From positions 10,118 to 74,117 of the forward strand of contig CAMDBH010000008.1 in the NCBI GenBank assembly GCA_945889325.1: DNA of 64,000 nucleotides, given 5' to 3'. The DNA is from Klebsiella pneumoniae (GTDB lineage: Bacteria > Myxococcota_A > UBA9042). The position numbers and the translations under genes were made by a program. How positions within the stretch are numbered: position 1 is the first letter of the stretch; each line of letters opens with the position of its first letter. The notes beneath the pieces were generated by a model that worked only from the letters and a program-made list of their open reading frames with translations, had not been told where the DNA came from and did no database searches. This document shows, one piece after another, positions 9,038 through 59,936 of this stretch.

Positions 9038-9629
9038 ATGAAAAGCGTCAAAAGGTAGCGAAACCAATCCAAAAATCCATCATGCCAAACCGGCCCGACG
9101 CGGAAAGTCCGCGTCGACTTGCGGCGATCGCGCTTTAGTTTTAGTGCGTTGTGGGAAGTGATGACGGTGATTTGGGCAACACGATCGGTAAGCGTGTGAT
9201 ATTCAAAAGTTTTGGCAAAGGCAAGATGCAAAGGACAGTCGGCAGGGCCGCCGAAGAGACCAGACCCATCGCGCAATTCTGACAACAGGCGAAACACAGC
9301 AAGATCTTTATTTATTTGTCGGTAGACCGCAGGTGATGCGGCACCACAACTGAGAAAAACGGGGCGGAATCATGGAACAGATGTTGGGGAAAAACGAAAA
9401 TATGCACAGTGAACTGACCAAGCACGGTGAAAAGCCTGCGAAAAGCGACAATTCTGCGGAATCCAGCAAGGGAGAAAGCAGCAAAAACGACAGCGCGCCA
9501 CACGTCGCAAACTTGCGCACGGCCAAGCAAAATGGTCGGCAGAATGAAGAATTTACGTTGCAAAGCAGCCTATTGGGTATTGGGCAAGGCCAGCAGGCCA
9601 ATGAACGCATCTTGGCGACGGAGATAGTT

Positions 9630-16015: not shown

Positions 16016-16565
16016 AAACCAGGTCGGCGGGATCGATCTGACCTACGTTGTCACGGCGCGAGAAAGTTAAGGGCAACACGGCGCCACCCGGGGTTTCCAC
16101 GGTCAGCGTGCCGACCAAATTGCCAGCGACATCTAAGGTGAGTTCGCCGTAAATGGGCAGTTCGGCCTGCGTCGCCGCACCTTGAACGCAGCCGCGCAAT
16201 CGGAAGTGCAGCGTGTTGGACGAGAGATCCATGCTGCCATCGTGTAAGTACGCACAAGCACACTGATTTAGCGGCGCCAATGCCGATTGCTTTACGTCAA
16301 AAATCTGCGTGCGGTAAAAATGCACCACCCCCGTCGCGTCCGGGCCATATTCGCCTATGACGATTTCAATGCCGATAGGGTCGCCCGCGGCATTGAAAAC
16401 TAAGGGGTTTGCTTTGGGTTTGGCGCGCCATACCCCTTCGACGTCGGTGCTCGCGGTGCAAGCAGACCCAAAGGAAACGAGGGCCGCAAAAGCAAGCGCC
16501 CAAACATTGTCAAACCGCCATGGCATCTTTGTCTTATTGCCCAATGTTGGCACAAGCATACGCAA
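15969..16565 (-). CDS. Hypothetical lipoprotein
   Basis: The signal and lipobox read WALAFAALVSFGSAC. No domain was recognised. The gene lies in an operon-like arrangement. Confidence 0.55.
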   Translation of the reverse strand: MRMLVPTLGNKTKMPWRFDNVWALAFAALVSFGSACTASTDVEGVWRAKPKANPLVFNAAGDPIGIEIVIGEYGPDATGVVHFYRTQIFDVKQSALAPLNQCACAYLHDGSMDLSSNTLHFRLRGCVQGAATQAELPIYGELTLDVAGNLVGTLTVETPGGAVLPLTFSRRDNVGQIDPADLVCAHPTEAEGNSFSGR

Positions 16566-36728: not shown

Positions 36729-36795
36729 GATGAACTCCATAGGTGGGGAATCGCGCGCAGGTACGTAAAACGCTAAAAAACAAACAATATCAGGG

Positions 36796-38948: not shown

Positions 38949-39150
38949 CTTTGGCCAAATGCGCGCAGTTTGCAACGGCACGATTTGCAGCATAACAATT
39001 GCGCTGCCGCTTGTCAGCGTTGGCCAAATTGGCAGGGCCGGGCGCGATGTTGGAGATCAAAGATTGCGAATCCTCGTCGATGCGCTATCGCGCGTAGTGC
39101 GGGTCTGCCCCGCCGCGGAACGCAGGCCCTGTGGCGCGGGAAAAAATCGG

Positions 39151-41284: not shown

Positions 41285-42316
41285 TCAAAAAATATTTTTT
41301 CCCATAGTGCTAGCCACTTTGGCTCGCACTGCAAGCACGGCCGGTGCGGCCGAGCCACCGTTGCCGCGCACTCCTGCCCGACAAGGAAACGCGAGAAATG
41401 GAAAAACCACCGCTCTGGCTCGACGGCCATTGCGCCCGCGTTGTTCTTGAGCGCGCAACTCTTGGCGGGCCAGGTCGTATTCATCCTCAAATGCCTGAAA
41501 CCGTTTGATGTATTCGTCCCGATCGCGTGCCGTAGGGGCGTGCACGATAGGTTTTCGGCGCGGGAGGGGCGGTGGTGCCGAGCGCTGCGGTTGATCTGGT
41601 GGGTCAGTTTGACTAGATTTATCAATTGGTTGTGGGGTGTCCTCGCCTTCGATGGCTTTGGTTCGCCGTTCAGAGATGTCCTTTGCAATATCCTGATATA
41701 ATTTGTGAAAAACATCGTCGGCCAATCCTTCGTGGCACGGCAAACGCGACATCGTGACGCTGACGCGTTTGCCGTAGGCTTCATCGACCTTCGGCCCCGA
41801 TTTCCGGCGCGCGTCCAACGTTCTGGCCGTTTGATCGAATTTCGTGCCATCGATCGAATCTCCGCGCAACATCCAAGGCAAGCTGCTTGCACCGCGGAAC
41901 TCGCTGGGATGTGAAGCGAGTCCGGCCTTGACCGCTTGTCCCATGATATAATCGATCCGTTTCATCAGGGTTGTCTCATCGATGACGACCGGAATGACAT
42001 GCGCGCTGCTGTTCCAAACTGGGCCGCGTCGGTTGTGGCGCCGGTTGGCAATACGCGCCAACGCCGCGTGAAGATGATTGAGAAATTTTGCCATTGTTTC
42101 AGGATCGGGAGCCCAGTATAGCCCGTGGTAGTGGTTAGAAAGCATGTGATAGGCGTAGATCTTCACAGGGTGCCGCAACTGTGCCGCTGCGAAGGCGCCA
42201 TTTATTGCTGCAGTTTGTGCGGGGTCGTCATCGTGAAACCAGAAGGTCCCCTCTATGGTCCTGATTGTGACCTCGAAAAATAGGTCTTGGGCGTACATGC
42301 GGATTGGATGCGACAT
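41285..42316 (-). mobile_element. HUH/Y1 tyrosine transposase-like gene (IS200/RayT-like), solitary, with a long C-terminal extension
   Basis: The HUH motif is LSNHYHGLYW. The Tyr helix is RIDYIMGQAVKAGL, compared with YIxxNPVKAGL in RayT-like proteins. The protein is 343 aa against about 150-190 aa for typical members. I saw no terminal hairpins or a second IS gene. Confidence 0.6.
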
Positions 42317-43281: not shown

Positions 43282-43364
43282 GACCCAACGGCATCGATCT
43301 TACTTGCGAGATCCGCGACGAAACGCCATGATAGCGAAGCCCTTCATGGGCGTTGGGTTCAATC

Positions 43365-46300
43365 ATGCGCACGTCAAGCCAACGAAACGATCTGGTGGCC
43401 AATATCTTCGCCCTAGGCGCGGCCACATTGAGCGCGGCCCACTGTTCCGGCACGGCCGGCAATGGCGGATCGCCAGATGCGGAATCCGATGTAATTACAG
43501 TGGAGTTGTCGATTTCCGACTTAGGTAAAGCACCATCGGACGCGACGGTCGATACGGCGGTGCCGTCAGACACAGCATCAGAAAATGACAGCGCATCCGA
43601 CGTCATCAGCAGCGACAGCCAAGGGAAATGCCCCGGCGCATCTGGCTGTGTGTGCAAAGAAAACGGCGACTGCGACAACGCCAAATGCATCGAAACCGGC
43701 AGCAGCAAGGTGTGCGCAACGCCGTGTGTCGACAAGTGTGAAGACGGCTACAAATGCACGCTGATCAACGGCACAAACGGCGATTCGTCAACGATCTGCG
43801 TACCCAAATTCCTGCACTTGTGCGATCCGTGCGTGAAATCAAAAGATTGCCAGACGCTCGGCAATGGTGACGCGGCCTGCGTCAACGAGGGCGGTCAAGG
43901 CAACTTTTGCGGCACCGCTTGCGGTACGGACGCCGATTGCGCGGCCGGTTACAGTTGCCAAAACGTGATTTCTGTCGAAGGCGCCCCAATAAAGCAGTGC
44001 GCCAAGACGTCGACGGCTCCTGAATTGAAGTTCGGCGAATGCATTTGTAGCGACCTAGCCACAGGACAAAAGCTGCAAACAAGTTGTTTTGTCGAGCACA
44101 AAAATGACAAGGGCGAACTCACCGGCAAATGTGCGGGCGTTAGGGTCTGTGCCGCCACAGGACTTACGAGCTGCGCCGCACCGGCGCTGGACGTTGAGGT
44201 TTGCGACGGCAAGGACAATGACTGCGACGGCAGCACAGACGAAAATACCTGCGACGCTGGCGGTGCTTGCAATGTGGGCTCTTGCGATCCGCAGGCGGGA
44301 TGCCAGTACAACAAGCTCAACAATGTGCCATGCGACGCAGACAAGAATGCCTGTACTGATAATGATCAGTGCAAACAAGGTGTTTGTGTGCCTGGGGCCG
44401 GCAAAATCTGCGATGATGGCAACCCTTGCACGACGGACAGTTGCGATCCGGCGAGCGGCTGCACGAAAACCAGCGACGACGGCAAAGCGTGCGACGCGGA
44501 CGGCAATGCATGCACGGCCGCCGATCATTGTGTTGGTTCAACCTGCACCGTCGGCAAGATCGTTGTATGCGAGAACACCGATTCCTGCAAAAAGGCCACC
44601 TGTGATCTAACTACAGGTAAATGCATCGGTAAATCGCTCCAAGACGGCGTCCCCTGCGACGATGCCACGGTGTGCACGCAAGGCGATCACTGCCAGTCGG
44701 GTGAGTGCTTGGGCAAGATTGTCAGCTGCGATGACAACAATCCGTGTACCGGCAATATTTGCGATGCCATCAACGGCTGCAGCACGTCGAATTTGGAGGG
44801 CATCGCTTGCGATGACGATAACCCGTGTACGATCGGGGACTTGTGTAAAGGTGGCCTTTGTGCAAACGGCGCCCTGAAGGTGTGCAACTCCGGGATGGCC
44901 TGCACGCTGGGCACATGCGATTTGGCAAATGGCAAGTGCAATTACAAGAACAAGGCCCTCGGCGCGCCCTGCAATGACGGCGACGCGTGCTCGGAAAACG
45001 ATGGCTGTGCCGACGGCGCGTGTCAGGGAAAAGCGCTGAATTGTGATGACTCAAACGCTTGCACAAACGACAGTTGCGACATGCTTGTGGGTTGCGCGCA
45101 CAAACCCAACGTGTCGCCGTGTTCCGATGGCGACGCCTGCACGCAGAGCGACAACTGCGTGAACAGCGCGTGCATCTCCGGACCCAACAAAGTTTGCGAG
45201 GACGGCGTTCTCTGCACCGCTGACACCTGCAACAAGACCAGCGGCGCATGTGTTTTTGATGCGGTCGGCATCAACGGGACGCCGTGCGATGACGGCAACG
45301 TTTGCACGCTCGGGGACAACTGCAAAAACGGCCTTTGCTCGGTCGGCATCGTCAAAGATTGCAACGACAACAACGCTTGCACCGATGATTTGTGCGACAA
45401 AATCAAAGGTTGCAGCCCCAACTTCAACAGCAAAGCCTGCGACGACAGCAACGCCTGCACCAAGGACGACCTTTGTAAATTTGGCGACTGCGAGGGCAGC
45501 ATGGTCAATTGCAATGACGGCAACCCCTGCACAGACGATGCCTGCGAAGCGAAAAAGGGTTGCCTCACAGCAAGCAACACCGCATTATGCAATGACAATA
45601 GTGCCTGCACTTCTGGTGACGCGTGCAAAAACAGCGTCTGCGGCGGCGCGCCGGTGAACTGCGACGACGGAAATCCCTGCAGCGACGATAGTTGTGATAA
45701 AACAGCCGGTTGTGTAAATACGCCCAACGCTGCGCTCTGCCCAGACAACGATGCGTGCACGACCGCTGAAACATGTAAGAATCTCAATTGCATCAAAAAG
45801 GCCACCGTCTGTGACGACGCCAACGAGTGCACGATTGACACCTGTGACGGCGTAAAAGGTTGTCAAGTGGCCAATATGGTAGACAAAAGCTTATGCGCCG
45901 GTGGCGCAAAATGGTGCGTGGCAGGAAGTTGCGTCGCCAAGGCGTTCTGCGGCGACGGTATTGTCAATCAAGCGACCGAGGACTGCGACGATGGCAATTT
46001 GGTCGACAACGACGGTTGCAACAATGCGTGCAAGAGCACGATACCCGTAAGTTTTACCCTTAGCCCGTGCGGCGCAACTGGGCCCACCGGCCCGACCCAA
46101 GCCCAATGCGACGCCGCATACGCCGCCCAAAAGCTTGTTGTCAAAATCAACGGTGGATTTCAAGAGATTACTGTGCCAGCGACGGGCACTTATCATATTG
46201 AAGCTTATGGCGCCCAAGGTGGCGGCAACGGCGGCAACGGTGCCAAGGCCACGGGCGATGTCACGATCCAAGCTGGGACGGTTTTACGTTTCATGGTTGG

Positions 46301-46883
46301 TCAGATCGGTCTCGCCGCACCGGCGCAGGTTGGCAATGGCGGTGGCGGCGGGTCGTTTGTCGCGACGGCTGCCAACGTGCCGTTGGTGATTGCCGGCGGC
46401 GGCGGTGGTTGCGGCCACAACACCTGGAATGGCGGGCCTTGGGCCGAGCTCACCGGACGGGCGGGCAACGACGGCGGCGCAGGCATGTACGTCGGAGGCA
46501 ATGGTGGCGTCGGTGGCGCTGGCGGAAAATTCAGCATAACCACAGGCAACGGCACGCCCAATGGCGGCGGCGGTGGCGGTTTCAACGGCGATGGCGGCAG
46601 TTCCGGCGCGTCGACGGGAGGCAAGTCCTTTGTCAACGGCGGCGCTGGTGGTAATTCTACGGGTGGTTTCGGCGGCGGCGGTGGATCCAACGTCTTTATT
46701 TACGGCTGCGGCGCATCGCCCCACGGTGGCAGCGGCGGCGGCGGTTACTCCGGCGGCGGCGGCGGCGGCGACAATTGCAACGGCCCGGGCGGCGGCGGTG
46801 GCTCCTATGTAAGCGGCGCCAACACTGCGATGACTGCCGGTGCAAACGCGGGCGCGGGCAAGATCATCTTCACCAAACTGTAG
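43365..46883 (+). CDS. Giant secreted Cys-rich repeat protein 1, with a C-terminal ALK/LTK-type glycine-rich domain
   Basis: The signal reads [27 protein letters not shown]. The N-terminal Cys module carries a MopE-type motif ([14 protein letters not shown]). About 20 four-Cys repeats of about 25 aa follow (CDDxNxCTxDxCxxxxGC). One myxo-type repeat is present ([28 protein letters not shown]). The last 280 aa are Gly-rich with the motifs [14 protein letters not shown] and [17 protein letters not shown]. Confidence 0.85.
   Translation: [1172 protein letters not shown]
44250..45900 (+). repeat. In-frame tandem array of four-Cys repeats of about 25 aa (protein 1)
   Basis: The periodic pattern is C-x5-C-x4/5-C-x4/5-C, alternating CDDxNxCTxDxC and CxDGxxCTxGDxC units. 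Confidence 0.8.
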
Positions 46884-46892
46884 AAAAGCACT

Positions 46893-46924
46893 GGAAAAAC
46901 TGGAGGGTGACCTTTTTCCGAAGC
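46893..46924 (-). repeat. A5 motif copy with A5/T5 inverted repeat: GGAAAAA-CTGGAGGGTGACC-TTTTTCC
   Basis: The copy lies 10-40 nt after the stop of Cys-repeat gene 1. The reverse strand reads GCTTCGGAAAAAGGTCACCCTCCAG. Confidence 0.6.
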
Positions 46925-47120
46925 ACAGTCACGATACCAACTCGCCGGCACGCTCCGCACACTTTCCTGTCACACCGCCCATGTGCGCCGACGGGCTCGC
47001 TCGGCCTGATCCTGCTTGCTCGCCCGCACGCCTGGCCATAGTCAGCCTTCCCCGGGCGTAAACCTAATCGATATTGCGGGTTTGACATGGTTCGGAGATT
47101 TCGCCGAAATACTGGCTTGC

Positions 47121-47140
47121 TTGGCATAATTTGTGCTAAT
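47121..47140 (+). promoter_or_regulatory. Sigma-54-type promoter-like element P1 (TTGGCATAATTTGTGCTAAT) upstream of Cys-repeat gene 2
   Basis: The sequence is TGGCAT-N5-GTGCT with correct GG-N10-GC spacing, about 90 nt upstream of the ATG at 47231. It is 16/20 identical to P2. The palindrome ATTTCG-C-CGAAAT at 47098-47110 lies just upstream. Confidence 0.45.
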
Positions 47141-47230
47141 GTTGAAAAAGCCGCCGTGCTGGGGCGCGGTTGGTGCGCGTGTGTCTTTTTCGCGCCAATC
47201 AATCGGCGCGAAATGTTGTTGGAGGAAAAG

Positions 47231-50200
47231 ATGAATTGTTCCAAGTCCACAGGCGAAATTCGGCGTTTCACGCGCGTTTTTACGGTTGCGATTGCGCTGG
47301 GCCTGAGCCTGTTGCCAGTCGGCTGCGGCAGTGACGAAGAAAACGCCAACCTCGGCACCGATGCCAGCGACAACGACGGCGATGCCGCGGCGAACAACCT
47401 CGACGGCGCCGATGTTGCTGATGTCGCAGTACCGATTTTAGGCCTCGATCATCTCTGCGATCCGTGCACAAAGGATAGCGATTGTGCTGGCGGGACCTGC
47501 ATCGCCGTCGGCACGCCGGCCGGCAGCAAGGGCAGTTTTTGCACTTCCGTTTGCAAGATCGACAGCGACTGCGGCACGGGCTACAAATGCTTGGACAAGA
47601 TCGCCGCAAGCGGCTCGGTCTGCGTGCCGGAAAAAGCCGAATGTGCGTGCAGCGATGCGGCCAAGAAGGCGAAATTGCAGACCGCATGCTTTGCAGCTTC
47701 ACTAGACGCAGACGGCAAGGTCGTTGGAAAGTGTGGCGGCGTAAGGACTTGTGGCGATATCGGCTTAAGCGTCTGTGACGCGCCAAACCCAGCCACTGAA
47801 ACCTGCAACGGCGTCGATGACGATTGCAACGGCACGACCGACGACATCAATGCTAGTGCTTGCGACGACTTGAACGCCTGCACCGACGACAGCTGTGACG
47901 GCAAAGCCTGCGCCCACGCCCAAAACACCAAAGCCTGTGACGACAGCTCCGCTTGCACAAAGGACGACATCTGTACTTTGGGCAGTTGCGCAGGCGCGGC
48001 CATTGTCTGCGATGACGCCAACGTGTGCACGGATGACAGCTGCGACAAGAAGTCGGGTTGTGTCAATGTGAACAACGTCTTGGGCTGCAATGACAACAAC
48101 AAGTGCACGGAAAAAGACACCTGCGCTGTCGGGCTATGCGCCGGCGCAACCGTCAGTTGTGACGACAAGAATCCGTGCACCGACGAGGCCTGCGACGTGG
48201 CCACCGGCTGTTCAAGCACCATTAACACGGTCGGTTGCACTGATGGTGACGGTTGCACGCTGGTCGACCTCTGCGTTGGCGGCAAGTGCGTTCCTGGCGA
48301 AAAACTCGACTGCGACGACAAGAATCCTTGCACCAAGGACAGTTGCGATTCGAAGACCGGAGAATGCCTGCATCCCGCAATCGCCGACGACACCGTGTGC
48401 ACGGACAACAGCGTGTGCACCACCGGCGACGCTTGCAAAGGCGGATTGTGTATTGGCAAAGCCATCGTTTGCGACGACGCCGAACTTTGCACCAAAGACA
48501 GTTGCGACCCAGCAACGGGCTGCACCGTGACGAATTTGGACGGCTTGGCTTGCGATGACGAAAATCTCTGCACCGTAGGCGATGCTTGCGCGGTGGGCAA
48601 GTGCGTTTCTGGCAAAGGCAAAGAATGCAAGTCGGCGGAATTTTGCATTGAATCTAAGTGCAACATCTTGGACGGCAAATGCAAATTGACGGCCAAAGCC
48701 GCTGGCGTGCCGTGCACCGACGGCACCGCCTGCACAGAAAAAGACGTTTGCGCGGACGGCAGTTGCGTCGGCCAGGGCGTCAATTGCGACGACAAAAACC
48801 CATGTACCCAGGACTCCTGCGATCTTGCAACCGGATGCGGACATAGCGACAGCAACCAGCCTTGCGATGACGGCAACAAGTGCACCGTTGGCGACCTGTG
48901 CAACGCCAGCGCCTGCGTGCCGGGTGGTCCGCTCAAATGCGACGACGGCAACCCGTGTACCCAAGACGCTTGCGACGGCACCAGCGGCCTGTGCGCGTTC
49001 AAGAATTTAGACACGCCTTGCGATGACGGCTCCTCTTGCACGACCGGCGAGGTTTGCAACGGCGGTGCGTGCGTCGGCAAAGCAATTAGCTGTGATGACG
49101 GAAACCCTTGCAGCGATGACGGTTGCGACGCCAAGCTCGGTTGCACGCATGTGAACAACACGGCGCCCTGCAATGATGCCAATGCTTGCACGGACTTTGA
49201 CGTTTGCGCTGCAGGCGAGTGTGCCGGCAAGAAGATTTTCGTCGCCATCTATTGCGACGACGGCAATATTTGTACAAACGACGGCTGCGACAAGAAATTT
49301 GGCTGTGTCAATACGTCCAACCTAGAACTGTGCAACGACGGCAATATTTGTACCGTAGGCGATTCTTGCAAAGACACCGTCTGCTTGCCGGGCCCCAACG
49401 TTTGTTCTTGCCAGACCGACGTGGACTGCAAGAAAGAAGACGATGGCAACTTCTGCAACGGCACGTTGTTTTGCGACAAGTCCAACGGCCTGAACAAATG
49501 CAAGGTCAATCCGGCAACCATCATCACTTGCCCGACCGGCAATGACAACGAATGCCAAAGCAACGAATGTGACCCGCCCACGGGCAAGTGCGCCCTGGCC
49601 GCGCAGAATGAAGCCAAGCCTTGTGATGCCGACGGCAGCGTTTGTACCGTCGGAGACATCTGCAAGAGCGGCCTGTGCACCATCGGACCATTGCAGACTT
49701 GCGATGACGGCAACGGCTGCACCAGTGATTCCTGCGATCCGAAAGCCGGTTGCTTGCACACGGCCAATGCCACGCCCTGCGATGCCGACCAAAATGCCTG
49801 CACCGTCGGCGACGTTTGCGCCGACAAGGTCTGCCAGAAGGGGCCCCTCAAACAATGCTCGGACGGCCAAGTTTGCACGTTGGACAGTTGCGACATCAAA
49901 ACCGGTAATTGCGTCTTTGACGCCGTCGCGCAGGAGGGCGCGGCTTGCGATGCCGATGGCAGCGTTTGCACGATCGGTGACACTTGCAAAGCGGGCGTCT
50001 GCGCTGCCGGCAAGGCCGCCAATTGCGATGACGCCAATCCTTGCACCAACGACAGCTGTGACAACAAACTCGGCTGCCAAAATGTTGCAAATACAGCCGC
50101 TTGTGATGCGGACAAAGATGCCTGCACGGTCGGCGACGTTTGCGCGGACAAGGTTTGCCTCAAAGGCAAAGCGACGACTTGTGACGACGGCAACCTCTGC

Positions 50201-51862
50201 ACAAGTGACGCCTGCGACGCGGCGAGCGGCAACTGTTTGGTCGCCAACCTGGCCACGCCGTGCAACGACGGTTCCGTTTGCACCACCGAGGATGTTTGCA
50301 CAAACGGCGCCTGCGTCGGCGTCCAAGTGCAATGCGATGACAAGAACCCGTGCACAAATGACGTGTGCGACCCCAAACAGGGCTGCACGTACACCAACAA
50401 TACGGTGCCTTGCGATGACAAGAACGCCTGCACTGACTTTGACATTTGCGGCAGCGGCGCCTGCAAAGGCACGCCAAAGGTGCCCGCCACCGATTGCGCG
50501 GATGGCAACGATTGCACCGACGATACGTGTGACCCTGCAACGGGTTGCGTGCACACCAACAACACTGCGCCTTGCGACGATGGCAACAAGTGCACCAACG
50601 CCGACAAATGCGCCGCCGGAAAATGTGTAGGCGGCGCCAGCATTTGTGCGTGCCAGAAGGACTCGGATTGCGCAGGCCAAGAGGACGGCAATTTCTGCAA
50701 CGGCACCTTGATCTGTTCCAACAACAAGTGCGCCATCAATCCGGCTTCGGTGATCGTCTGCAACGCGTCTGGCGATAATGCTTGCACCAAGAATACTTGC
50801 ACGCCATTGACCGGCAAATGCGCGATGGTATCGCAAAATGAGGCTGGGCCTTGCAGCGACAGCAGCGTTTGCACGCAGGGCGACATCTGCAAGGCCGGCG
50901 CGTGCATACCGGGCGCTCAGGTCAACTGCGACGACGGCAATTTGTGCAGCAACGACAGTTGCGATGCGATCAGCGGTTGCGTGCACACGGCCAATGCGCT
51001 GCCTTGCAACGCCGACAGCAATCTGTGCACCGTCGGCGACGCTTGTGCTCTTAGCGCCTGTAAAGCGGGGCCTGCCAAAGACTGCAACGACAAAAATGCT
51101 TGCACAAACGACAGTTGCACAAAAGCTACCGGCAACTGCGTCAACGATGCAGGGGCTCTGCAATTTCAGCCGTGCAACGACGGCAACGCGTGCACAACGG
51201 GTGACGTGTGTCTGGCGGGCACATGCACACCTCAGGGCAACAAAAATTGCAACGACTTCAACGTGTGCACCGACAACGCCTGTGATCCGGTGAAAGACTG
51301 CGTGTTCACCGCCAATGTGCTGCCGTGCAATGCCGACAACAACGCGTGCACGGTTGGCGACACTTGCGCAGCCAGCGTCTGCGTGGCCGGCGCAGCCAAA
51401 GTGTGCAACGACAACCTGCCCTGCACGCAGGACTCTTGCAGTACGCAAAGTGGCAATTGCTCGTTCCAGTCCGGCCCCTTGGACGGCAAGAGCTGCGACT
51501 TTGATCAGAGCGTTTGCACAGTCAACGACTTCTGCAACAACGGCTTGTGCAACGCCGGGCCCAAAGTCAACTGCGGCGACGGCAACGTCTGCACCGACGA
51601 TACGTGCGACGCGGTCAAGGGCTGCCAGCATGGTGCCAATACTGCAGGCTGTAACGCCGACAACAATGCCTGTACGGTCAGCGATGTATGTGCGGCCAAG
51701 GTGTGCACGCCAGGTCCGGTGAAGAACTGCGACGACCTCAACGTTTGCACCGTCGATTCTTGCAAAACGCAAAATGGCGATTGTAGCCATAATCCTCAGC
51801 CGCTTATTGGCTCGGTCTGTGCGCTCGGCAAGAAATGCAGCAACGCTGGCGTTTGCCAGTAA
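47231..51862 (+). CDS. Giant Cys-rich repeat lipoprotein 2 (1543 aa)
   Basis: The ATG at 47231 has GGAGGAAAAG upstream. The signal with Cys reads [32 protein letters not shown]. The N-terminal module is homologous to that of protein 1 and includes [14 protein letters not shown]. About 50 four-Cys repeats follow, interrupted twice by a DDGNFCNG module of about 60 aa. Confidence 0.85.
   Translation: [1543 protein letters not shown]
47861..51859 (+). repeat. In-frame tandem array of four-Cys repeats of about 25 aa (protein 2)
   Basis: The period is the same as in protein 1. The repeats create very long stop-free antisense frames. Confidence 0.8.
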
Positions 51863-51944
51863 ACAGCTGCTTGGGCGGCCGTTGATGTTCGCGATGATGC
51901 AAGTTCGGCGGCGGGTCGAACGGATGCACAGTCAGGAGTCGCCG

Positions 51945-54900
51945 ATGTTCAGACGTGCAACCGTTGGATTTGTCTTGATATTGGCCGGATGTGAGGATGC
52001 CGTCGTCGAAGGCCCTGTGGACTTGGGCGATGCAGTTGCCGGCGATATCGCCACCGACGTTGTTCAAGACATAGCTGCCGTCGACACCGGCCCGGACGTC
52101 ACGGTCGCCGATGTCGCCGCGGCCGATCTCGGAAGTGAGGTTGCCGACGTCCCAGCCGTGGAGGAGGTCGGTCCTGATGCTGAAGTTCAGACGGAATCGG
52201 ATGTTGCGCCCGACGTCGCTGAGGATATCGCGCCAGATATCGCGCCTGACAGCGGTCCGGAGGTCGCCATCGATGCCGGTTGCCAAAACGACCTGCAGTG
52301 CGTGGTCATGGACGACGGGGATTTGTGCAACGGTATTTGGCGTTGCAAAGCAGGGACATGTGAGCCAGATCCGACGAGCGCAGTTGTCTGTGCAGCTGTC
52401 CCGCAATGCAACCTCAACATTTGTGCGCCCAAAACGGGCAAGTGCGAAGCTGGTTTTGTCATCAACGGCGTGATCTGTGACGACGGCAGTGTGTGCACGG
52501 CGAGCGACGCCTGCAACGCCGCTGGCATCTGCGTGGGCAAGGGCATTGTTTGTGATGACAAAAATGTTTGCACGACAGATAGTTGCGACAAGACGACCGG
52601 TTGCGTGTTCACGGCCAACACCATCGCCTGCGATGACGGCAACGCCTGTACCAAAGACGACGCGTGCGCGAACCAACTTTGCGGCGGTGTCGGATTCGAT
52701 TGCGACGACAAAAACGTTTGCACCGACGACCTTTGCAAACCAGTGGTCGGCTGCACCCACAGCGCCAACGCCTTGGTGTGCGACGACGGCAGCGCTTGCA
52801 CGACTGGCGATGTTTGCGCCGCCAACATCTGCGCCGGCAAAACTTTCAGTTGCGACGATAAAAACGTTTGCACCAACGACAGTTGTAACGCGGTCACTGG
52901 CTGCGTCAACGCGCCGAACAGCATCCTGTGCAATGACGGCAGCGCATGCACGGTCACCGACGGCTGCGCCGGTGGAAAATGCGTCGGCAAGGCATTGGCT
53001 TGTGATGACAGCAACCTGTGCACCGACGACGCCTGCAACCCTGCAAGTGGCTGTGTGTTTTCAGCAAGTTCGATTGCCTGCGACGATGGCAGCAAGTGCA
53101 CCACAGGCGATGCGTGCGCGGCGAGTTTGTGCAAGGGTCTGGCGGTCAACTGCGATGACAGCAACCCGTGTACGACGGATGCTTGCGCGCCCGCCAGTGG
53201 CTGCACCCACGTCAACAACACAGGTCCTTGTAGCGACGGCACATTGTGCACGACAGGTGACGTTTGCAACGGCGGCCTTTGCAAAACGAGCCCCGTCAAC
53301 TGTGACGACAACAACGCCTGCACCGACGACGGTTGCGATCAAGCTGCCGGTTGCGTCCACGTGAACAACAGTGTCTCTTGCAATGATGGCACGTTATGCA
53401 CGGCCAGTGATGCCTGCGCAGCCGGCGTTTGCAAAGGCGTTGCGGTCAATTGCGACGACAGCAACGTCTGCACGTCGGACATTTGCGCTGGGCTAACGGG
53501 CTGTAAGCACAATCCAATCTTGGGCGTTTGCAGCGACAACAATGCGTGCACCAATTCTGACACCTGCACAAACGGCGCTTGCGTCGGCGGCACGGTGAAC
53601 TGCAACGATGTCAATGTTTGCACAGACGACAGTTGCGATGTGATCAAGGGGTGTCAACACGCTGCAAATACGGCTAGTTGTGATGATGGCAGCGGCTGCA
53701 CAGTCGGCGATATTTGTGCCAGCAGCCTGTGCAAATCTGGTCCGGCCAAGGTTTGCAATGACAATGACAGTTGCACGTCCGACAGCTGCTCTGGCGTGTC
53801 CGGCAAGTGCGTTTACAGCAAAATACTTGGTTGTGCCGGTGGCGGTGGCTGCAAGATCGATGCAGATTGCAACGACAACGATCTTTGTACCAACGACGTT
53901 TGCAATGTGGGCGCCGGCTGTATTTCGACGTTCAATGCCGCGGCTTGCAACGACGGCAACGCGTGCACGAGCGGCGACGCCTGCACGGTGGGGTTGTGCC
54001 AGGGCGCGGCCGCCGTCTGCGACGACAAAAATCCGTGCACCGATGATACGTGCAAAGCGGCAACCGGTTGCAGTTTCATCAATAATCTTCAGGCTTGTGA
54101 CGATGGCAGCGCTTGCACAAGCGACGACAAATGTGCCGCAGGCGTCTGCGGCGGCGCGAACATTTGCGACGACAGCAACGCCTGCACGACCGATAGCTGC
54201 GGCGCCAACAACAGTTGCGTGCACACGCCGATTGTCGGGCTCTGCGACGATGGCAACGCTTGCACGGGTGGCGACAGCTGCGCCACGGGCGCTTGCGTCG
54301 GTAAAGTCATTAGTTGCGATGACAAAAATGTCTGTACCGATGATGCTTGCTCAGCCAAGAGCGGTTGCGCCCACGTCAGCAACACTTCTGGTTGCGACGA
54401 CGGCAACAGTTGCTCCAGTGCCGACATCTGCGCCGGCGGGCTTTGCGCGGGCAAGGGCCTGATTTGCGACGACAAGAACCCTTGCACGACCGACACGTGT
54501 GGCAACAACGGCTGCATTTTTACCAATAATACAGCGGGTTGCGATGACGCCAGCGCCTGCACCAGCGGCGATGTCTGCTCTGCGGGAAATTGTTCGGGTG
54601 TCGCAATCGCTTGTGACGATGGCAATTCGTGCACCGACGACAGTTGTGACAAGGCCACCGGCTGCGCTCACGCCAACAATGCGGCGGCTTGCAGTGACAG
54701 CAACCTGTGCACGACCGGTGACTTTTGCAGTGGCGGCCTTTGCAAGGCTGGCGTGGCGAAAAGCTGCGATGATGCAAATGCTTGTACGACAGACAGTTGC
54801 GACGCAGCGACCGGCAACTGCGTCAACAGTCCGATTTTGGGTTGCGGCGCGACACCGACCTGGACGGACACTTGCAACAAAGTCATTTTGGGCAATGGCT

Positions 54901-55184
54901 GCACTGGGTGTCATGGCGGACCCGGCGGATCGGGCGGATTTTCCATGGGGCAGACCTGCGACGCGATTTACACGGGGATTGTTAATAAGACTACAAATAC
55001 ACCCAATTGTGCGTCTAAGACCTATGTCAAACCGAGTAGCGCCAGCGGCAGTTTGGTTTGGCTCAAGGCAGACCCGAATGCGGTCCAAGCGTGCGGCGGG
55101 AAAATGCCTTTGGGTTCCAGCGGCGTGTCGCAAGCCGATGCGGACATGTTGAAGGCTTGGATCGATGGCGGCGCGCTGAAGTAG
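51945..55184 (+). CDS. Giant Cys-rich repeat lipoprotein 3 (1079 aa), with a C-terminal CxxCH PSCyt1-like domain
   Basis: The ATG at 51945 has AGGAG upstream. The lipobox is MFRRATVGFVLILAGC. An acidic linker is followed by a DDGDLCNG module and about 30 four-Cys repeats. The C-terminus reads VILGNGCTGCHGG...VKPSSASGSLVWLKA...CGGKMPLGSSGVSQADADMLKAWIDGGA. Confidence 0.85.
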   Translation: MFRRATVGFVLILAGCEDAVVEGPVDLGDAVAGDIATDVVQDIAAVDTGPDVTVADVAAADLGSEVADVPAVEEVGPDAEVQTESDVAPDVAEDIAPDIAPDSGPEVAIDAGCQNDLQCVVMDDGDLCNGIWRCKAGTCEPDPTSAVVCAAVPQCNLNICAPKTGKCEAGFVINGVICDDGSVCTASDACNAAGICVGKGIVCDDKNVCTTDSCDKTTGCVFTANTIACDDGNACTKDDACANQLCGGVGFDCDDKNVCTDDLCKPVVGCTHSANALVCDDGSACTTGDVCAANICAGKTFSCDDKNVCTNDSCNAVTGCVNAPNSILCNDGSACTVTDGCAGGKCVGKALACDDSNLCTDDACNPASGCVFSASSIACDDGSKCTTGDACAASLCKGLAVNCDDSNPCTTDACAPASGCTHVNNTGPCSDGTLCTTGDVCNGGLCKTSPVNCDDNNACTDDGCDQAAGCVHVNNSVSCNDGTLCTASDACAAGVCKGVAVNCDDSNVCTSDICAGLTGCKHNPILGVCSDNNACTNSDTCTNGACVGGTVNCNDVNVCTDDSCDVIKGCQHAANTASCDDGSGCTVGDICASSLCKSGPAKVCNDNDSCTSDSCSGVSGKCVYSKILGCAGGGGCKIDADCNDNDLCTNDVCNVGAGCISTFNAAACNDGNACTSGDACTVGLCQGAAAVCDDKNPCTDDTCKAATGCSFINNLQACDDGSACTSDDKCAAGVCGGANICDDSNACTTDSCGANNSCVHTPIVGLCDDGNACTGGDSCATGACVGKVISCDDKNVCTDDACSAKSGCAHVSNTSGCDDGNSCSSADICAGGLCAGKGLICDDKNPCTTDTCGNNGCIFTNNTAGCDDASACTSGDVCSAGNCSGVAIACDDGNSCTDDSCDKATGCAHANNAAACSDSNLCTTGDFCSGGLCKAGVAKSCDDANACTTDSCDAATGNCVNSPILGCGATPTWTDTCNKVILGNGCTGCHGGPGGSGGFSMGQTCDAIYTGIVNKTTNTPNCASKTYVKPSSASGSLVWLKADPNAVQACGGKMPLGSSGVSQADADMLKAWIDGGALK
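52475..54845 (+). repeat. In-frame tandem array of four-Cys repeats of about 25 aa (protein 3)
   Basis: The period is the same as in proteins 1 and 2. Confidence 0.8.
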
Positions 55185-55253
55185 GCGTTGGTCTGTTGCC
55201 GGTGGCTCGTGCGGCAAAAACGACCAATTCCGCCAAACCCCTGTCATTTCATG

Positions 55254-55283
55254 GATCAGAAAAAGGGTGCCCTCCCACTTTTT
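55254..55283 (+). repeat. A5 motif copy with A5/T5 inverted repeat: GATCAGAAAAAG-GGTGCCCTCCCA-CTTTTTG
   Basis: The copy lies 70 nt after the stop of Cys-repeat gene 3 and upstream of the next lipoprotein gene. Confidence 0.6.
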
Positions 55284-55339
55284 GCGCATCGTCGGACTCT
55301 CCGCTACGCTTAAGGGCCACCGGTGGGCGACACAACAAA

Positions 55340-56575
55340 ATGACGCGAGAAATCCTTATTAGCCTCACCTTCACAGCGCTGTGCGGCTGCTACGACGACA
55401 CCACGGATCGCCCTGCGCCTGCAAATACCCTAAATAATATCGGTTTTACCCTCGCCGCCTCCAAACGTGTCTTGGTGGTCGTCGATTCCGACTACGCCTC
55501 GTCCGCGGTCGCCTTCGTCGACCTCACCAGCGGTGAAGTGGCCTCAAAAATCCTGACATCCGGCACAAAAGTCTCCGCAACCACCACGGCGCTCAGCGGT
55601 GATCTCGTCGTTGCCCAATCGCCGGCTTTGGACCTCACGGCTGTGCTTGTCGATCGCAACCACAGCGTTATTACCTGGATCGGGCGCGGCGGGGGCATCT
55701 CACAACTATCCGTATCTACGGGATTTGCTGCAAATCCTCAGGACTACGCACAAGTTTCAGCGCAGTACGGCTGGGCGTCGCGCAATGCCCGCAATCCGTT
55801 GCCGTCGGCCCCAACCGACGATTTCGACGAAGGCGACGACTTGGTCGAAATCGACCTAGCGACGCACAAGATCGTGCGCCGCGTACCCCTTGGCGCGCAC
55901 ACGAGCCTGCCCGGGGCCGCCGCTGGAGCGATGCGCATGGCGTTCGACGGCGTGTCACTTTGGGTGCCGCTGTCGTCGATCAGCGCCGATTTCAAAGCGC
56001 AAGGCGCCGGACGTGTCCTTGCCGTTGATGCCAAAGCTGCCGCCATTGTGGCTACGGTTGACCTACCGACAACCAAAAATTGCACGACGGTGCGCTACCT
56101 TGCAAAAACGCAGCGGTTGGCTGTCGCTTGCTCGGGGTCATTTGCAGAGCCGACCAAGCAAACGCAACAGAGCGCCATCGCGGTGTTTTCGGCGGCGACG
56201 CCTTCGGATGCAGAAATTGTCTTTCAAGCTAATGAGTTGCCTGGTGGGACCCCTTTTTCCAAAGACTTCGTTTGCCTAGACGAGCGCCACTGCGCCGTCA
56301 TCGGTTTCGGCGATTTCGCCATCGGCCGCCCCGACAAATTGTGGCATCTCGACCTAGTCACCCGCAAAGCAACCTTTGTCGCCAATTGCGCCGCCCCTTT
56401 CGCCGGCAGCGGCCTATTTGCCGATGCAGCCACCGGCATCGTCTGGCTCGGCGAACGCAAACGCAGCAACGGCGACCTGCGACGATTCGATTTCACCAAC
56501 GGCAACAAAGAATTGCCCGCGATCTCCAGCAATCCTGGCGGCCTCGGCGCCACAGAGTTCGGCGCGATGCAATGA
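55340..56575 (+). CDS. Hypothetical lipoprotein, beta-propeller-like
   Basis: The internal ATG at 55340 gives MTREILISLTFTALCGC. The sequence is beta-rich and repetitive (VLVVVDSDYASSAVAFVDL..., VLAVDAKAAAIVATVDL...). No domain was recognised with certainty. Confidence 0.6.
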   Translation: MTREILISLTFTALCGCYDDTTDRPAPANTLNNIGFTLAASKRVLVVVDSDYASSAVAFVDLTSGEVASKILTSGTKVSATTTALSGDLVVAQSPALDLTAVLVDRNHSVITWIGRGGGISQLSVSTGFAANPQDYAQVSAQYGWASRNARNPLPSAPTDDFDEGDDLVEIDLATHKIVRRVPLGAHTSLPGAAAGAMRMAFDGVSLWVPLSSISADFKAQGAGRVLAVDAKAAAIVATVDLPTTKNCTTVRYLAKTQRLAVACSGSFAEPTKQTQQSAIAVFSAATPSDAEIVFQANELPGGTPFSKDFVCLDERHCAVIGFGDFAIGRPDKLWHLDLVTRKATFVANCAAPFAGSGLFADAATGIVWLGERKRSNGDLRRFDFTNGNKELPAISSNPGGLGATEFGAMQ

Positions 56576-56939: not shown

Positions 56940-59936
56940 ATGAAAACCAGCACATTCAAAAAAATCGCCTGCTTTCGCCGCCGCGCACTGAGCGTGCTGA
57001 CCGTGTTGTGCGCTCTCGCGACCAGCGCCTGCGAAGACGGTCCCTATCAGACATTCAGCGCGGCGCCGACAGGGGCGCAAAAACGTTGGAACGACGGCAC
57101 GCCGCCAGCCAATGCAAATCCACCTGCTTCTCAGGGTTTTGCCAGCGATTTTGCGGGCGGCGGCAACAAGCAGGAGATTTGCACTGGCGAGGAGCGGGCA
57201 AAGCGCTGGGCGGCAATGGTCCACGAGCCGATTATCCCGCCGACGCAGGCAGCCGGCTTGGACGGTGCGGGCGGGGCGGCGTGGCAAGGGCTGACTGTGG
57301 AGCAAGCGGAGAAAATCAACTGTCAAAGCACGTCCTTGGGCGATTATTACGGCGACGGCACGTTGGTCAATCTGTGGGGCGACAACGGCGAGGTTTTGAT
57401 CAACTATAGCTTGTCAAACCACAATAAAATTGTCGGGATTTCCTTGTCGACCGGTTACTTGGGCGCGTTGAATTTCAAAAGCCGCGATGGCAAAAACAAC
57501 TTCCAAATTGTGCTTAACACCCAGATCACCAAGAACGGCAATCCGTACCAAGTGGATTGGGATGACGACGCCAAATTTAACATTGAAGCGACTGAAATTG
57601 CAGATGCTTTGCTTGCAACGTACGCGCCGCAATTGCCGGCCGAAAACATCAAGGCGGGCAGTTGTATCGCCAATGGCCATTGCACCAAGGCGCTGTATCC
57701 GGATCAAGCCGCGCTGCGGGTTTGGCCGTTGGGCGTGCATTTGTCAGCCGATTACCCGTATTCGGCCCAGCCGATTCCGTCCAAATTCACAGGCATTGAC
57801 CTCAGTATGCCGCGGGTGATGCCGTATTCACTGGCGGCCACGCAGATGAAATTGGACAAGCAGGGCCCCCTTGCGCAAATCGGCGGATTGGGCGGCGGCG
57901 CCAAGACCTGCAAGATCGAACTGGGCATGACTTGGAAGGAATTCTTGGCCAATTGCGTCAATGTGACGGGTAAAAAGGAGCTAGACGATGTGGCCTACGC
58001 CAAGCTGACGGGCAACATCGGTCACGGCGCGGAGTCGTTTTTGTTCGATACTTCCGGCATCGACGTCAATTTCTTGTCGTCGACGCTGGCGCCGTTTGAA
58101 GTATTGCTGGATGCCGATCGACCCCAAGACGGCGACAAGGCCGACAGTGTGAGCATCGATGCCGAATCACTTGGAGTATTTACGAATGATTACGCAAATG
58201 ATGGCAAGACGCAGGATTTGCACGGCACAGGGGCCATCTACTTCGAATACGCGCGGCTGGTGCAAGCCGAGATCAACCGCCAGATTAAGCTCAAGAATCC
58301 CGCGGCTGTGACACATGAACTGGGAGATCCGGCCTGCCTTTTCCCCGATTCGGCCAACTTTGACCCTGCAACCTTCAAATACGCTGAAAATTGCACAGGT
58401 TTTGAAGGTTTTTTGACCCCGCTTGCGCCCTTGACCGACAAAGCCGGCGTGGCGATGCCGGTGGACGTCAGCCCGACCAACCGCTTGCGTTTGGGCGTCG
58501 ATGCCGCCGAGATCATTGGCGCTTTGGGCATGAAGCCGGGCAAGCCGCTGGCGGCCTTTTGCATGGACGCCAACGGCAACTTTGATACTGGCTATTTTTA
58601 TTGCGGCACGGGCGACAAATACGGTGCAAAAGGCGCGTTTTGGGATGTGTCGTATCAGCGGGTGCTCAGCGTGTTGGGCAAGGGGCAACTGACCAATCTG
58701 CCACTGGAATGTCGCGATAGGCGCTTCTACTTCCGCATGTACGCCACGGCCGTGGTCAAGTACCTGACAGTCGCAGCCGATCCGCTGGTTGTCGATCTCA
58801 GCGCCGTCGACATCGATTTGAACAACTTGATCTTCGACACCGAGGGCTCGGGGCAGTCCGAATCGGCCGAGTTCATCGACCGGCGTTTTGTCTCGGGCAC
58901 CCAAGCGCCGTTAGATTTTGTGATCGCCGCCGATATCGTCAACGGTACGCTTTATAACTACAGTTTTGCGCGCTATCTCGTGCGCGAAGAAGCTGCGATG
59001 TACCAGGCGATGACGGAGAAGTCAGGTACCCCTCTGGGCAAGGAAAATGGCTTGAGCCTGACAAATGTCTTTGGTAGTCCAGTGTTAGCTAACGGTTGGA
59101 CGGATCACGAGGTCAAGGGCGCCGCCAAGAAATCGGCGTATCAATGTGCGACGGCCGATTGGAAGACCAAAGACGAATACACCAAAATTTACAGCGCTTG
59201 TGAAGGAGAGTTGCCGCCACTGGATCCGACTTATGCCACAGATCCGACCGATCCGACGGCGCCGCCGGCGATGCCGCTGCGTGAAAATGGCAAACCGTAT
59301 TTGACGCCATACAAAGGCGCATTTGCGGGCAGCGAAACGCCATTTTCCCTTGGTTCGGCGCGCATCGACGTTGAAGCGACGTTGCCCGCATTGGCGTCGG
59401 CCAAAGTCAAAATCCACCGCACAAGCGACCCGTACGACCCAGAAAGCAGCGCGCTTGCACCGATTGCGGTCCTGGTGCCTTGGTTGCCACCGCAGCCGGG
59501 CTCGGGCTATTTTGTGCCGACCAACGCGCAGCAGGACAAGTTAATTGAAGCAGGACTCATTGATTTTTCCGGCGTGACGACCAGTTTTAGCGTTTATTAC
59601 CATCAAGTTGAGCAGACAGACGGTGGCTTGGGCCCTGTGCAAATCGCCGCCGTGGAGGCCAAGACCTTTCTGGGCGACGTATTCCTCTGCCAAGATCCGC
59701 AGTCCCGCGACATCCTGCGCACGCGCATGTACGGGTCGGTGCAAGCGATTATTGAATGGATCGATGCACATCCAGGTGTTTACGACGCCTGCGGCCTGCT
59801 CATCCGCTACAGCCCTTACGACAATTTTCCCGACTTCATCTTGTCGACTGTCAACGGCGTGCGTATCGGCGTAAGTCAAGGCGGCGGTTACGGTCGCGTC
59901 AATGACGCCACGCTGTCGTACGTCGAAACGAACTAA
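56940..59936 (+). CDS. Large orphan lipoprotein (998 aa), no recognisable domain
   Basis: The internal ATG at 56940 gives MKTSTFKKIACFRRRALSVLTVLCALATSAC. The reading frame is long and uninterrupted with coding-like composition. Confidence 0.65.
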   Translation: MKTSTFKKIACFRRRALSVLTVLCALATSACEDGPYQTFSAAPTGAQKRWNDGTPPANANPPASQGFASDFAGGGNKQEICTGEERAKRWAAMVHEPIIPPTQAAGLDGAGGAAWQGLTVEQAEKINCQSTSLGDYYGDGTLVNLWGDNGEVLINYSLSNHNKIVGISLSTGYLGALNFKSRDGKNNFQIVLNTQITKNGNPYQVDWDDDAKFNIEATEIADALLATYAPQLPAENIKAGSCIANGHCTKALYPDQAALRVWPLGVHLSADYPYSAQPIPSKFTGIDLSMPRVMPYSLAATQMKLDKQGPLAQIGGLGGGAKTCKIELGMTWKEFLANCVNVTGKKELDDVAYAKLTGNIGHGAESFLFDTSGIDVNFLSSTLAPFEVLLDADRPQDGDKADSVSIDAESLGVFTNDYANDGKTQDLHGTGAIYFEYARLVQAEINRQIKLKNPAAVTHELGDPACLFPDSANFDPATFKYAENCTGFEGFLTPLAPLTDKAGVAMPVDVSPTNRLRLGVDAAEIIGALGMKPGKPLAAFCMDANGNFDTGYFYCGTGDKYGAKGAFWDVSYQRVLSVLGKGQLTNLPLECRDRRFYFRMYATAVVKYLTVAADPLVVDLSAVDIDLNNLIFDTEGSGQSESAEFIDRRFVSGTQAPLDFVIAADIVNGTLYNYSFARYLVREEAAMYQAMTEKSGTPLGKENGLSLTNVFGSPVLANGWTDHEVKGAAKKSAYQCATADWKTKDEYTKIYSACEGELPPLDPTYATDPTDPTAPPAMPLRENGKPYLTPYKGAFAGSETPFSLGSARIDVEATLPALASAKVKIHRTSDPYDPESSALAPIAVLVPWLPPQPGSGYFVPTNAQQDKLIEAGLIDFSGVTTSFSVYYHQVEQTDGGLGPVQIAAVEAKTFLGDVFLCQDPQSRDILRTRMYGSVQAIIEWIDAHPGVYDACGLLIRYSPYDNFPDFILSTVNGVRIGVSQGGGYGRVNDATLSYVETN

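Follow-up and report, generated by a model that had tools for sequence, protein, structure and literature searches.

Three adjacent forward-strand genes encode large cysteine-rich proteins, which we call p1, p2 and p3, in a 64,000-nucleotide (nt) stretch of DNA referred to here as the window (contig CAMDBH010000008.1 of assembly GCA_945889325.1, positions 10,118 to 74,117, filed under Klebsiella pneumoniae with the GTDB lineage Myxococcota_A; UBA9042). All three are built around long tandem arrays of a four-cysteine unit, and p1 has close relatives in which the C-terminal tip is exchanged on a nearly constant body. A preliminary description of this DNA, made from its letters and open reading frames (ORFs), had placed here genes of 1172, 1543 and 1079 amino acids (aa). 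The ORF list agrees, giving same-strand frames with alternative starts at 43353/43365-46883, 47087/47231-51862 and 51774/51945-55184, as does an independent gene caller, which returned products of the same three lengths from a 38.9-kb contig of the European Nucleotide Archive (ENA; ERZ27280223:k141_105464). The start codon of p2 (ATG at 47231) is preceded by GGAGG and that of p3 (ATG at 51945) by AGGAG, and the proteins end in IIFTKL (p1), AGVCQ (p2) and DGGALK (p3). Promoter and terminator scanning gave counts equal to the shuffle expectation, and searched whole against NCBIfam p1, p2 and p3 found no match. The positions of the genes and of their parts are collected in Table 1.

Table 1. Window positions of p1, p2 and p3 and of the segments that compose them.
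Feature	Position	Strand	Description
p1 gene	43365..46883	+	1172 aa; signal peptide, acidic linker, Cys-rich base module, 21-unit stalk, junction, TG tip
p1 signal peptide	43365..43445	+	Predicted; ends in non-canonical lipobox-like LSAAHC (read from the translation)
p1 Cys-rich base module	43629..44249	+	aa 89-295; MopE-type CDGKDNDCDG at its end
p1 stalk	44250..45863	+	aa 296-833; 21 alternating A/B units (regular-expression parse)
p1 junction and myxo_disulf_rpt/DUF4215 unit	45864..46034	+	QVANxVDKxxC...; conserved seam 5' of the tip
p1 tip	46035..46880	+	ALK/LTK-type TG domain (TNF-like and glycine-rich)
p2 gene	47231..51862	+	1543 aa; predicted lipoprotein signal, base module, 45-unit three-segment stalk, Cys cap
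p2 Cys-rich base module	47411..47860	+	aa 61-210; query that retrieved 80 loci
p2 insert module 1	49403..49621	+	CxCQxDxDC...DGNFCNG...; breaks the array (Cys-gap break, alignment)
p2 insert module 2	50645..50851	+	56% identity to insert 1
p3 gene	51945..55184	+	1079 aa; lipobox, acidic linker of about 95 aa, insert-type module, stalk of about 31 units, CxxCH tip
p3 N-terminal module	52281..52445	+	38% identity to p2 insert 1; replaces the base module
p3 tip	54822..55181	+	Predicted PSCyt1-like c-type cytochrome domain; CTGCH, CGxKMP, WIxxGA

Cysteine makes up 10.6% of p1, 14.4% of p2 and 13.3% of p3, and the gaps between successive cysteines follow the series 5, 4, 5, 8 and then 5, 5, 4, 6, which resolves into a 50-aa super-repeat of two four-Cys units of 24-26 aa each. 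A greedy, non-overlapping regular-expression parse yields 98 units (21 in p1, 45 in p2 and 32 in p3) in which two types alternate strictly, A with the consensus CDDxNxCTxDxCDxxxGC and B with the consensus CxDGxxCTxGDxCxxGxC. Exactly these motifs had been read by eye before, together with a guess of about 20, 50 and 30 units. The stalk repeat had also been likened to the Dictyostelium-type repeat Dicty_CTDC (PF00526) rather than to myxo_disulf_rpt, and the PF00526 hidden Markov model (HMM) bears this out for all three proteins, with scores of 65.5 bits for p1, 176.8 for p2 and 220.1 for p3 against a Pfam gathering threshold of 27 bits. The stretches matched by PF00526 number 8, 21 and 16 in p1, p2 and p3 and the A units 11, 22 and 16; the B unit, with its one extra residue (CTxGDxC), is probably a sub-type that the PF00526 model sees poorly. 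Both units are rich in aspartate and asparagine, a composition that would be compatible with Ca2+ binding.

Structure prediction of the repeats had been proposed in the preliminary description, and an AlphaFold2 model of six units (p3 aa 322-472), computed from an in-register alignment of 15 non-overlapping segments of p1, p2 and p3, gives a confident ladder with one β-hairpin per unit (predicted local distance difference test, pLDDT, 92). No solved structure matches this model at E<=0.001, and its nearest resemblances are to the Entamoeba Gal/GalNAc lectin heavy chain (E 0.059), the Cys-rich domains of TNFR, follistatin and EGF arrays. As modelled, the stalk would be a cysteine-rich ladder similar to the rods of extracellular proteins, and it may well be rigid. 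Since the cysteine spacing is even and invariant and the model is a hairpin ladder, the cysteines would be expected to form structural disulfides rather than to remain free thiols.

At the N-terminus, the signal peptide of p2 ends in a near-canonical lipobox (LLPVGC) and that of p3 in a canonical one (LILAGC), judged by eye on the translations against the pattern [LVI][ASTVI][GAS]C. Homologues of p1 carry canonical L-x-[GA]-C lipoboxes, and in 41 aligned relatives that share the base module the cysteine that closes the signal peptide is kept in 90% or more. It seems probable from these signals that p1-p3 are exported and lipid-anchored. The Cys-rich module that p1 and p2 had been said to share is indeed common to both (40% identity over 156 aa, E 8e-30), and the MopE-type motif attributed to it is visible in the two base modules as CxGxDxDCxG, but a match to the family itself was not obtained, PF11617 (Cu-binding_MopE) scoring 19.3 bits on p1 and 19.2 bits on p2, below its gathering threshold of 27. 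The base module is missing from p3, which starts instead with a module of about 55 aa homologous to the two inserts of p2, and modules of this insert type lie inside the arrays of 12 other loci, with 38-57% identity to p2 insert 1.

The three proteins end in different ways. Beyond its 21st unit p1 has the only myxo_disulf_rpt/DUF4215 unit of the set (aa 862-890, nt ~45948-46034), which scores 38.8 bits with TIGR02232 (cut-off 20.8) and 34.7 bits with PF13948 (cut-off 27); Pfam and NCBIfam scans found none in p2 or p3, in keeping with the single clear copy reported earlier. The tip that follows had been described as glycine-rich and ALK-like, and both its sequence and its predicted fold agree. 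A phmmer search of the PDB with this tip retrieved human ALK (7lrz, E 1.8e-11), LTK (7nx0, E 2.7e-07) and SCD-2 of C. elegans (E 9.9e-05). Its AlphaFold2 model, based on 43 sequences, has a pLDDT of 91.8 and a predicted template modelling score (pTM) of 0.92, and the top 21 PDB matches found with Foldseek are all ALK, LTK or SCD-2 (E 4e-16 to 9e-09; template modelling, TM, scores 0.53-0.72), the best ALK and LTK folds reaching TM 0.64-0.72 at 26-29% identity with a shared FxxCGAxGxxGPTQxQC motif. The PF12810 (ALK_LTK_GRD) HMM gave no match on p1 at E<=10, probably owing to the composition filter, and many relatives of the tip carry precomputed PF12810 matches. Judged by sequence and predicted fold, the p1 tip is a true ALK/LTK-type TNF-like and glycine-rich (TG) domain. 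Among viral proteins, 80 structural matches to this tip were obtained at E<=0.001, and PHROG gave a match at E 3.9e-24. As a separate observation, ALK-type TG/glycine-rich domains are very common in bacteria (2417 matches at E<=0.001 among 8000 scored candidates), where they are fused to type IX secretion system (T9SS) sorting domains, PKD, FN3, pilin-like N-termini and DUF4215, and they are common in proteins of cyanophages and Caulobacter phages, which are often mis-named 'receptor protein-tyrosine kinase'.

As had been noted for p2, no extra domain closes its array, only a 25-aa Cys cap. The CxxCH end reported for p3 is conserved among its relatives, of which 716 were found at E<=0.001 among 1.84 billion representatives: in a 21-sequence alignment CxxCH, CGxKMP, WIxxGA and a distal methionine are conserved, and CTGCH and CGGKMP of p3 align with columns conserved at 80% or more. 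Relatives of the tip match PF07635 (PSCyt1) or PF13442 (Cytochrome_CBB3), with P0122, P0124, P0129, P0140 and P0146 passing the PF07635 threshold, and two (P0123 and P0127) join a Dicty_CTDC array to a p3-type tip. The p3 tip itself reaches no Pfam threshold (Cytochrom_C 13.3 bits, cut-off 21.3, E 0.21; no PF07635 match). It shares CxxCH, KMP and WIxxGA motifs with the PSCyt1 relatives but differs in two extra conserved cysteines and in being fused with a Dicty_CTDC rod instead of PSD1/PSCyt2 modules. These motifs suggest that the p3 tip is a heme-c-type domain, to which heme would be attached.

The strongest evidence for the organisation of these proteins comes from p1 and its homologues. A full-length search with p1 found 18 proteins of 982-1182 aa, all with the base module and exactly 21 units, a stalk length fixed in 19/19 genes. 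Through the 21st unit (~830 aa) their bodies are 69-75% identical to p1, and over all 171 pairs of p1-type bodies identity is 68-83% (median 74.5%). Their tails, by comparison with p1, range from 67% identity over full length, through alignment of only the first ~57 aa, to unalignable. Those first ~57 aa, which comprise QVANxVDKTxC... and the DUF4215 unit, are 67-77% identical where the tips are otherwise unrelated. At least 10 classes of tip occur on this body. TG-type tips are found in p1 and six homologues (38-67% identity to p1) and have diverged more than the bodies; the others are glycine-rich (Gly_rich_2, PF12810), Fibrinogen_C or one of eight unannotated singletons. The two most similar bodies of all (P0272 and P0280, 83%) carry a TG and a fibrinogen-like tip respectively. 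The clearest single example of cassette sharing is a pair of adjoining genes at locus L085, one with a MopE stalk (13127-16213) and one with a Dicty stalk (P0284, 10001-13081), whose N-terminal parts are 28% identical and whose last 230 aa, a junction and tip of ~210 aa, are 57% identical (E 9e-110); composition-adjusted BLASTP missed this shared tip, which was found by comparing the tails alone. The family is large and built from cassettes, with a conserved body joined via the DUF4215 seam to interchangeable tips.

The view of the window as three paralogues with swapped tips was overstated for p1-p3, which are three subfamilies because their base modules, stalk lengths and inserts differ as well as their tips, although a clean swap of tips does occur among p1-type genes elsewhere. 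The display logic of anchor, rigid stalk and variable tip is supported, mainly by evidence from beyond the window, in bodies that stay 68-83% identical while the tips differ. The p1-type homologues were recovered from the two ENA samples that also yielded the window, have a GC content of 0.58-0.59 and lie in different housekeeping contexts, which is most simply read as a multigene family, both dispersed and tandem, within one population. The window also contains a B12-dependent (class II) ribonucleotide reductase that carries a TSCPD domain (9372-12569, + strand), and since an identical reductase lies on a 78.9-kb contig of ERZ27280297 the window's organism is linked to both samples (ERZ27280223 and ERZ27280297). 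One locus of the second sample, L084 (ERZ27280297:k141_1680298), is larger than that of the window and has four p1-type genes in tandem (1028+, 1155, 982 and 1031 aa), followed by two M16 peptidases and a VWA protein, with a fifth p1-type gene (1084 aa, PF12810 tip) ~10 kb further on.

More widely, a scan of genome contigs with the p2 base module retrieved 80 loci, nearly all in metagenome-assembled genomes (MAGs) of uncultured Myxococcota or 'deltaproteobacteria', from lakes, sea water and sediments, and several of these MAGs hold multiple copies. The module occurs in ~58 ORFs of Myxococcota MAGs, at ~130-200 aa from the N-terminus of products 480-2770 aa long. Downstream of it, 29 of 41 relatives have MopE repeats (PF11617 above threshold), 13/41 Dicty_CTDC and 8/41 TSP_3, and LamG, SBBP, amidase, disintegrin, EGF or fibrinogen-like domains turn up in occasional relatives. 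Dicty-array genes repeatedly stand in tandem, as pairs or triplets (L004, L016, L040, L046, L067, L070 and L081), tipless rods of the p2 type have 45-60 units, and less closely related Dicty-array proteins terminate in LamG, C-type lectin, FG-GAP, RCC1, LTD, S8 protease, NHL, FGE-sulfatase and other domains. Two word-index searches for homologues returned no match longer than ~1.75 times the query, apparently through a limit on candidate length, and a third, made with the 144-aa base module, gave no match. Some Dicty-array proteins (L011, L012, L035, P0304 and P0306) share a conserved C-terminal ~126 aa of the form ...CYxGxxxTxGxGxCxxGxxxC...CDGxDxDCxG... with an aromatic/hydrophobic end, GFxxWLKxLL, possibly a separate kind of C-terminal signal for sorting or anchoring. 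All the building blocks are known families, and bacterial Dicty_CTDC and PF12810 domains are already annotated in databases. A literature search of incomplete coverage turned up no account of ALK_LTK_GRD from bacteria, none of the Dictyostelium repeat from myxobacteria, and no paper describing the family, its constant-body/swapped-tip organisation or bacterial TG domains on such rods; the organisation of the family appears to be undescribed.

The tandem paralogues and their repeat arrays had been taken to make the locus prone to recombination, and a test for concerted evolution had been proposed; neither idea is supported. The longest exact direct repeat over the 12 kb is 23 nt and DNA repeat copies are 60-79% identical, which makes them poor substrates for homologous recombination. 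At the protein level super-repeats have a mean identity of 46-55% (maximum 67%) both within and between p1-p3, and the nearest neighbour of a super-repeat lies in the same protein in 20/46 cases, against an estimated ~16 by chance. Concerted evolution or recent homogenisation was rejected on these figures. Tandem Repeats Finder reported trivial short arrays only, because the copies are too diverged.

We propose, with a probability of roughly 0.55, that p1-p3, from an uncultured Myxococcota bacterium, are lipoproteins which display binding or recognition domains at the cell surface or in the matrix. They would be exported and lipidated by the Sec/signal peptidase II (SPII) route, acquire their disulfides, and in p3 the heme, in the periplasm, and finally be exposed as rods at the surface or within the extracellular matrix. 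In order, each protein has a Cys-ended signal peptide, an acidic flexible linker, a Cys-rich module and a stalk of 21-45 units, which would form a disulfide-stapled β-hairpin rod; in p1 and p3 the stiff rod would hold a C-terminal globular tip at a set distance from the envelope, and p2 is long and tipless. The tips may act in adhesion by binding polysaccharide, prey or neighbouring cells. A binding role is suggested because the TG fold captures ligand in ALK/LTK and recognises host receptors on phage fibres, and because other tips in the family are lectin-like. Known analogues are TraA of M. xanthus, with its variable domain on Cys-rich repeats, and the Dicty_CTDC matrix proteins of Dictyostelia, both taken up below. 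The fold class of the TG domain also forms the tip with which gp24 of phage Pam3 binds its receptor, at the fibre's distal end (PMC9608196), and the tips of phage tail fibres (Pam3 gp24 and S16 gp38) and p1 have in common a TNF-like and/or polyglycine fold at the distal end of an elongated fibre, although phage fibres are trimeric, virion-borne and associated with chaperones whereas p1 is a cellular protein on a disulfide rod. In ALK/LTK the TG domain adjoins a membrane-proximal EGF domain within a receptor kinase, while in p1 it stands at the free C-terminus of the rod and there is no kinase. We know of no ALKAL ligand in bacteria.

Several points weigh against this proposal. Because p2 is tipless, display cannot be the whole story; the lipobox of p1 is non-canonical (SAAHC, with histidine at -1); and a disulfide-rich lipoprotein of more than 1000 aa would have to cross the outer membrane. 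No conserved partner or export genes were found beside relatives of p1-p3, the paralogues are placed in one genome only by their shared samples and similar GC (0.58-0.59), and location, lipidation, heme attachment and binding are all matters that we infer from sequence.

The main alternative, possible but at clearly lower odds, is that these are structural proteins of the extracellular matrix, whose arrays bind exopolysaccharide or calcium or cross-link the matrix and whose tips are accessory. EcmA and EcmB are Dicty_CTDC proteins of the Dictyostelium slime sheath. In Dictyostelia such arrays mark secreted matrix proteins, some of which have a lectin-like PA14 domain (PMC4931340), and the Dictyostelium proteins (EcmA, EcmB, PsiA and others) resemble p1-p3 in their long tandem arrays of ~24-aa four-Cys units of the type CDDxNxCTxDxC...GC. 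A matrix role would also suit the Asp/Asn-rich units with their potential for Ca2+ binding, the lack of a tip in p2 and in many relatives of 54-60 units, and the name 'extracellular matrix protein' given to one relative in its source. In turn, p1-p3 differ from the Dictyostelium proteins in being bacterial, with lipoprotein-type signals, strict A/B alternation, a Myxococcota-specific base module, inserts and exchangeable tips. As evidence against a purely structural role, a p1-type stalk fixed at 21 units while the tips are exchanged fits a spacer with a payload better than a bulk polymer, and the lipoprotein-type signals suggest anchoring rather than free secretion. The matrix and display readings overlap, and both may hold.

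It is improbable, in our view, that p1-p3 are periplasmic metal or redox proteins on a periplasm-facing anchor, with MopE-like modules that bind copper or another metal and a heme-c tip that transfers electrons. The MopE-type motif of p1 and p2, the CxxCH and conserved methionine of the p3 tip and the matches of its relatives to cytochrome c families are in line with such a role, as is the fact that heme attachment and disulfide formation are both periplasmic processes. Set against it are the sub-threshold PF11617 scores (19 vs 27 bits), the cysteine spacing and hairpin ladder that indicate structural disulfides, rods of 21-60 units that would be unlikely to fit in the periplasm, and the lectin- or adhesin-like, not redox, nature of most tips in the family.

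Slightly less probable still is a polymorphic toxin or kin-discrimination system, in which a conserved body would deliver variable C-terminal effectors or self-recognition domains in the manner of Rhs, CDI, teneurin-like proteins or TraA. A constant body with abruptly variable C-termini is a signature of polymorphic toxins. Bacterial teneurin-like proteins, which are most common in Myxococcota, are SPII lipoproteins with variable adhesion-type N-terminal modules, and in the toxins of this phylum these can include Dicty_CTDC (bioRxiv 10.1101/2025.11.11.687626). They share with the p1 family a conserved core and hypervariable C-terminal domains, but Pfam scans of p1-p3 found neither a toxin domain nor an FN-plug, NHL or YD-shell superfold. 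In TraA of M. xanthus a variable (polymorphic recognition) domain is set on Cys-rich repeats at the cell surface (PMC13184517); like p1 it is a Myxococcota protein whose Cys-rich stalk carries a recognition domain, and p1 has one repeat unit of the TraA type. Within the phylum TraA is the nearest functional analogue, yet the topology is reversed, with the anchor of p1-p3 N-terminal and the tip C-terminal, the stalk is of the Dicty_CTDC rather than the DUF4215 type, and p1-type tips are unrelated folds where TraA variants are alleles of one domain. Pfam and NCBIfam scans revealed neither a MYXO-CTERM tag nor a PA14-like variable domain in p1-p3, nor any Rhs/YD shell. Moreover, the 13 tips scanned contained no toxin Pfam family, being TG, fibrinogen-like, Gly_rich_2 or small Cys-containing domains, and neither in the window nor at L083-L088 are the genes followed by small ORFs of the immunity type. 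Finally, collapse or mis-assembly of one repeat-rich gene into three by the short-read assembler is very improbable, even for genes so repetitive at the protein level on a contig from a MEGAHIT k141 metagenome assembly, given that even the longest exact repeat falls far short of k=141 and the copies are so diverged, that each gene has its own start codon, signal peptide, stop codon and ribosome-binding site, and that homologues of like length and architecture lie on several independent contigs.

The neighbouring genes are of several kinds. Upstream and on the reverse strand, a 579-aa secreted protein (35001-36740) has a C-terminal fibrinogen/COLFI-like domain (PF01410 E 2.4e-08, PF00147 E 7e-05) and VTxxKIADGAVT-type repeats, and its N-terminal domain of ~100 aa recurs just downstream of base-module genes at at least six Myxococcota loci (L011, L012, L018, L032, L035 and L040). 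Next to it (36819-38993, also reverse) is a eukaryote-like adhesion protein of 724 aa with FG-GAP repeats and an ASPIC/UnbV domain, whose lipoprotein-like signal and acidic linker resemble those of p1-p3. The HxH...Y-type motif (YHMLSNHYHGLY) of a 343-aa ORF (41285-42316, reverse) recalls the Y1 transposases associated with IS200/REP; Pfam gave no match to this ORF at E<=0.001, and L030, a locus that also carries a base-module gene, has a homologue 42% identical to it. Downstream and on the forward strand are a 459-aa gene call that begins 12 nt after the p3 stop codon (55196-56575) and has a lipobox-like TALCGC ~60 aa into its product, a 998-aa protein with no family match (56940-59936) and a 1156-aa Met-zincin (DUF4953; 60011-63481). 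Co-transcription of these three with p3 is possible, but their presence beside relatives is not conserved; a conserved secretion or modification operon was rejected, since the 459-aa lipoprotein, the 998-aa protein and the Met-zincin, like the GT2 that lies upstream, are all without counterparts there.

A further possibility, which we regard as speculative and rather unlikely, is that the family forms a combinatorial repertoire of surface receptors, in which a 21-unit disulfide 'ruler' would be re-armed by cassette exchange at the DUF4215 seam to provide at least 12 specificities for prey, kin or matrix per cell; bacterial and phage TG domains would then represent the source pool of the metazoan ALK/LTK ligand-binding domain. 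If true, such an origin would have its parallels in teneurins, for which a bacterial origin has been proposed, and in Dicty_CTDC, which social bacteria share with social amoebae. The spread of the TG domain in bacteria and phages bears in any case on the origin of the metazoan ALK/LTK ectodomain, and it shows the unusual polyglycine fold by which ALK/LTK bind ligand to be abundant among bacteria and phages. The arrays also provide a parallel, at the level of sequence, between extracellular proteins of two independently 'social' lineages, the myxobacteria and the dictyostelids, and the rod, predicted with high confidence and with no solved relative, could serve as a modular rigid spacer for protein engineering. 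For the Myxococcota themselves, a constant anchor and rod that carries swappable heads would give thousands of huge Cys-rich 'hypothetical proteins' a testable function and, if confirmed, would open a route to understanding how predatory and social bacteria recognise prey, kin or matrix.

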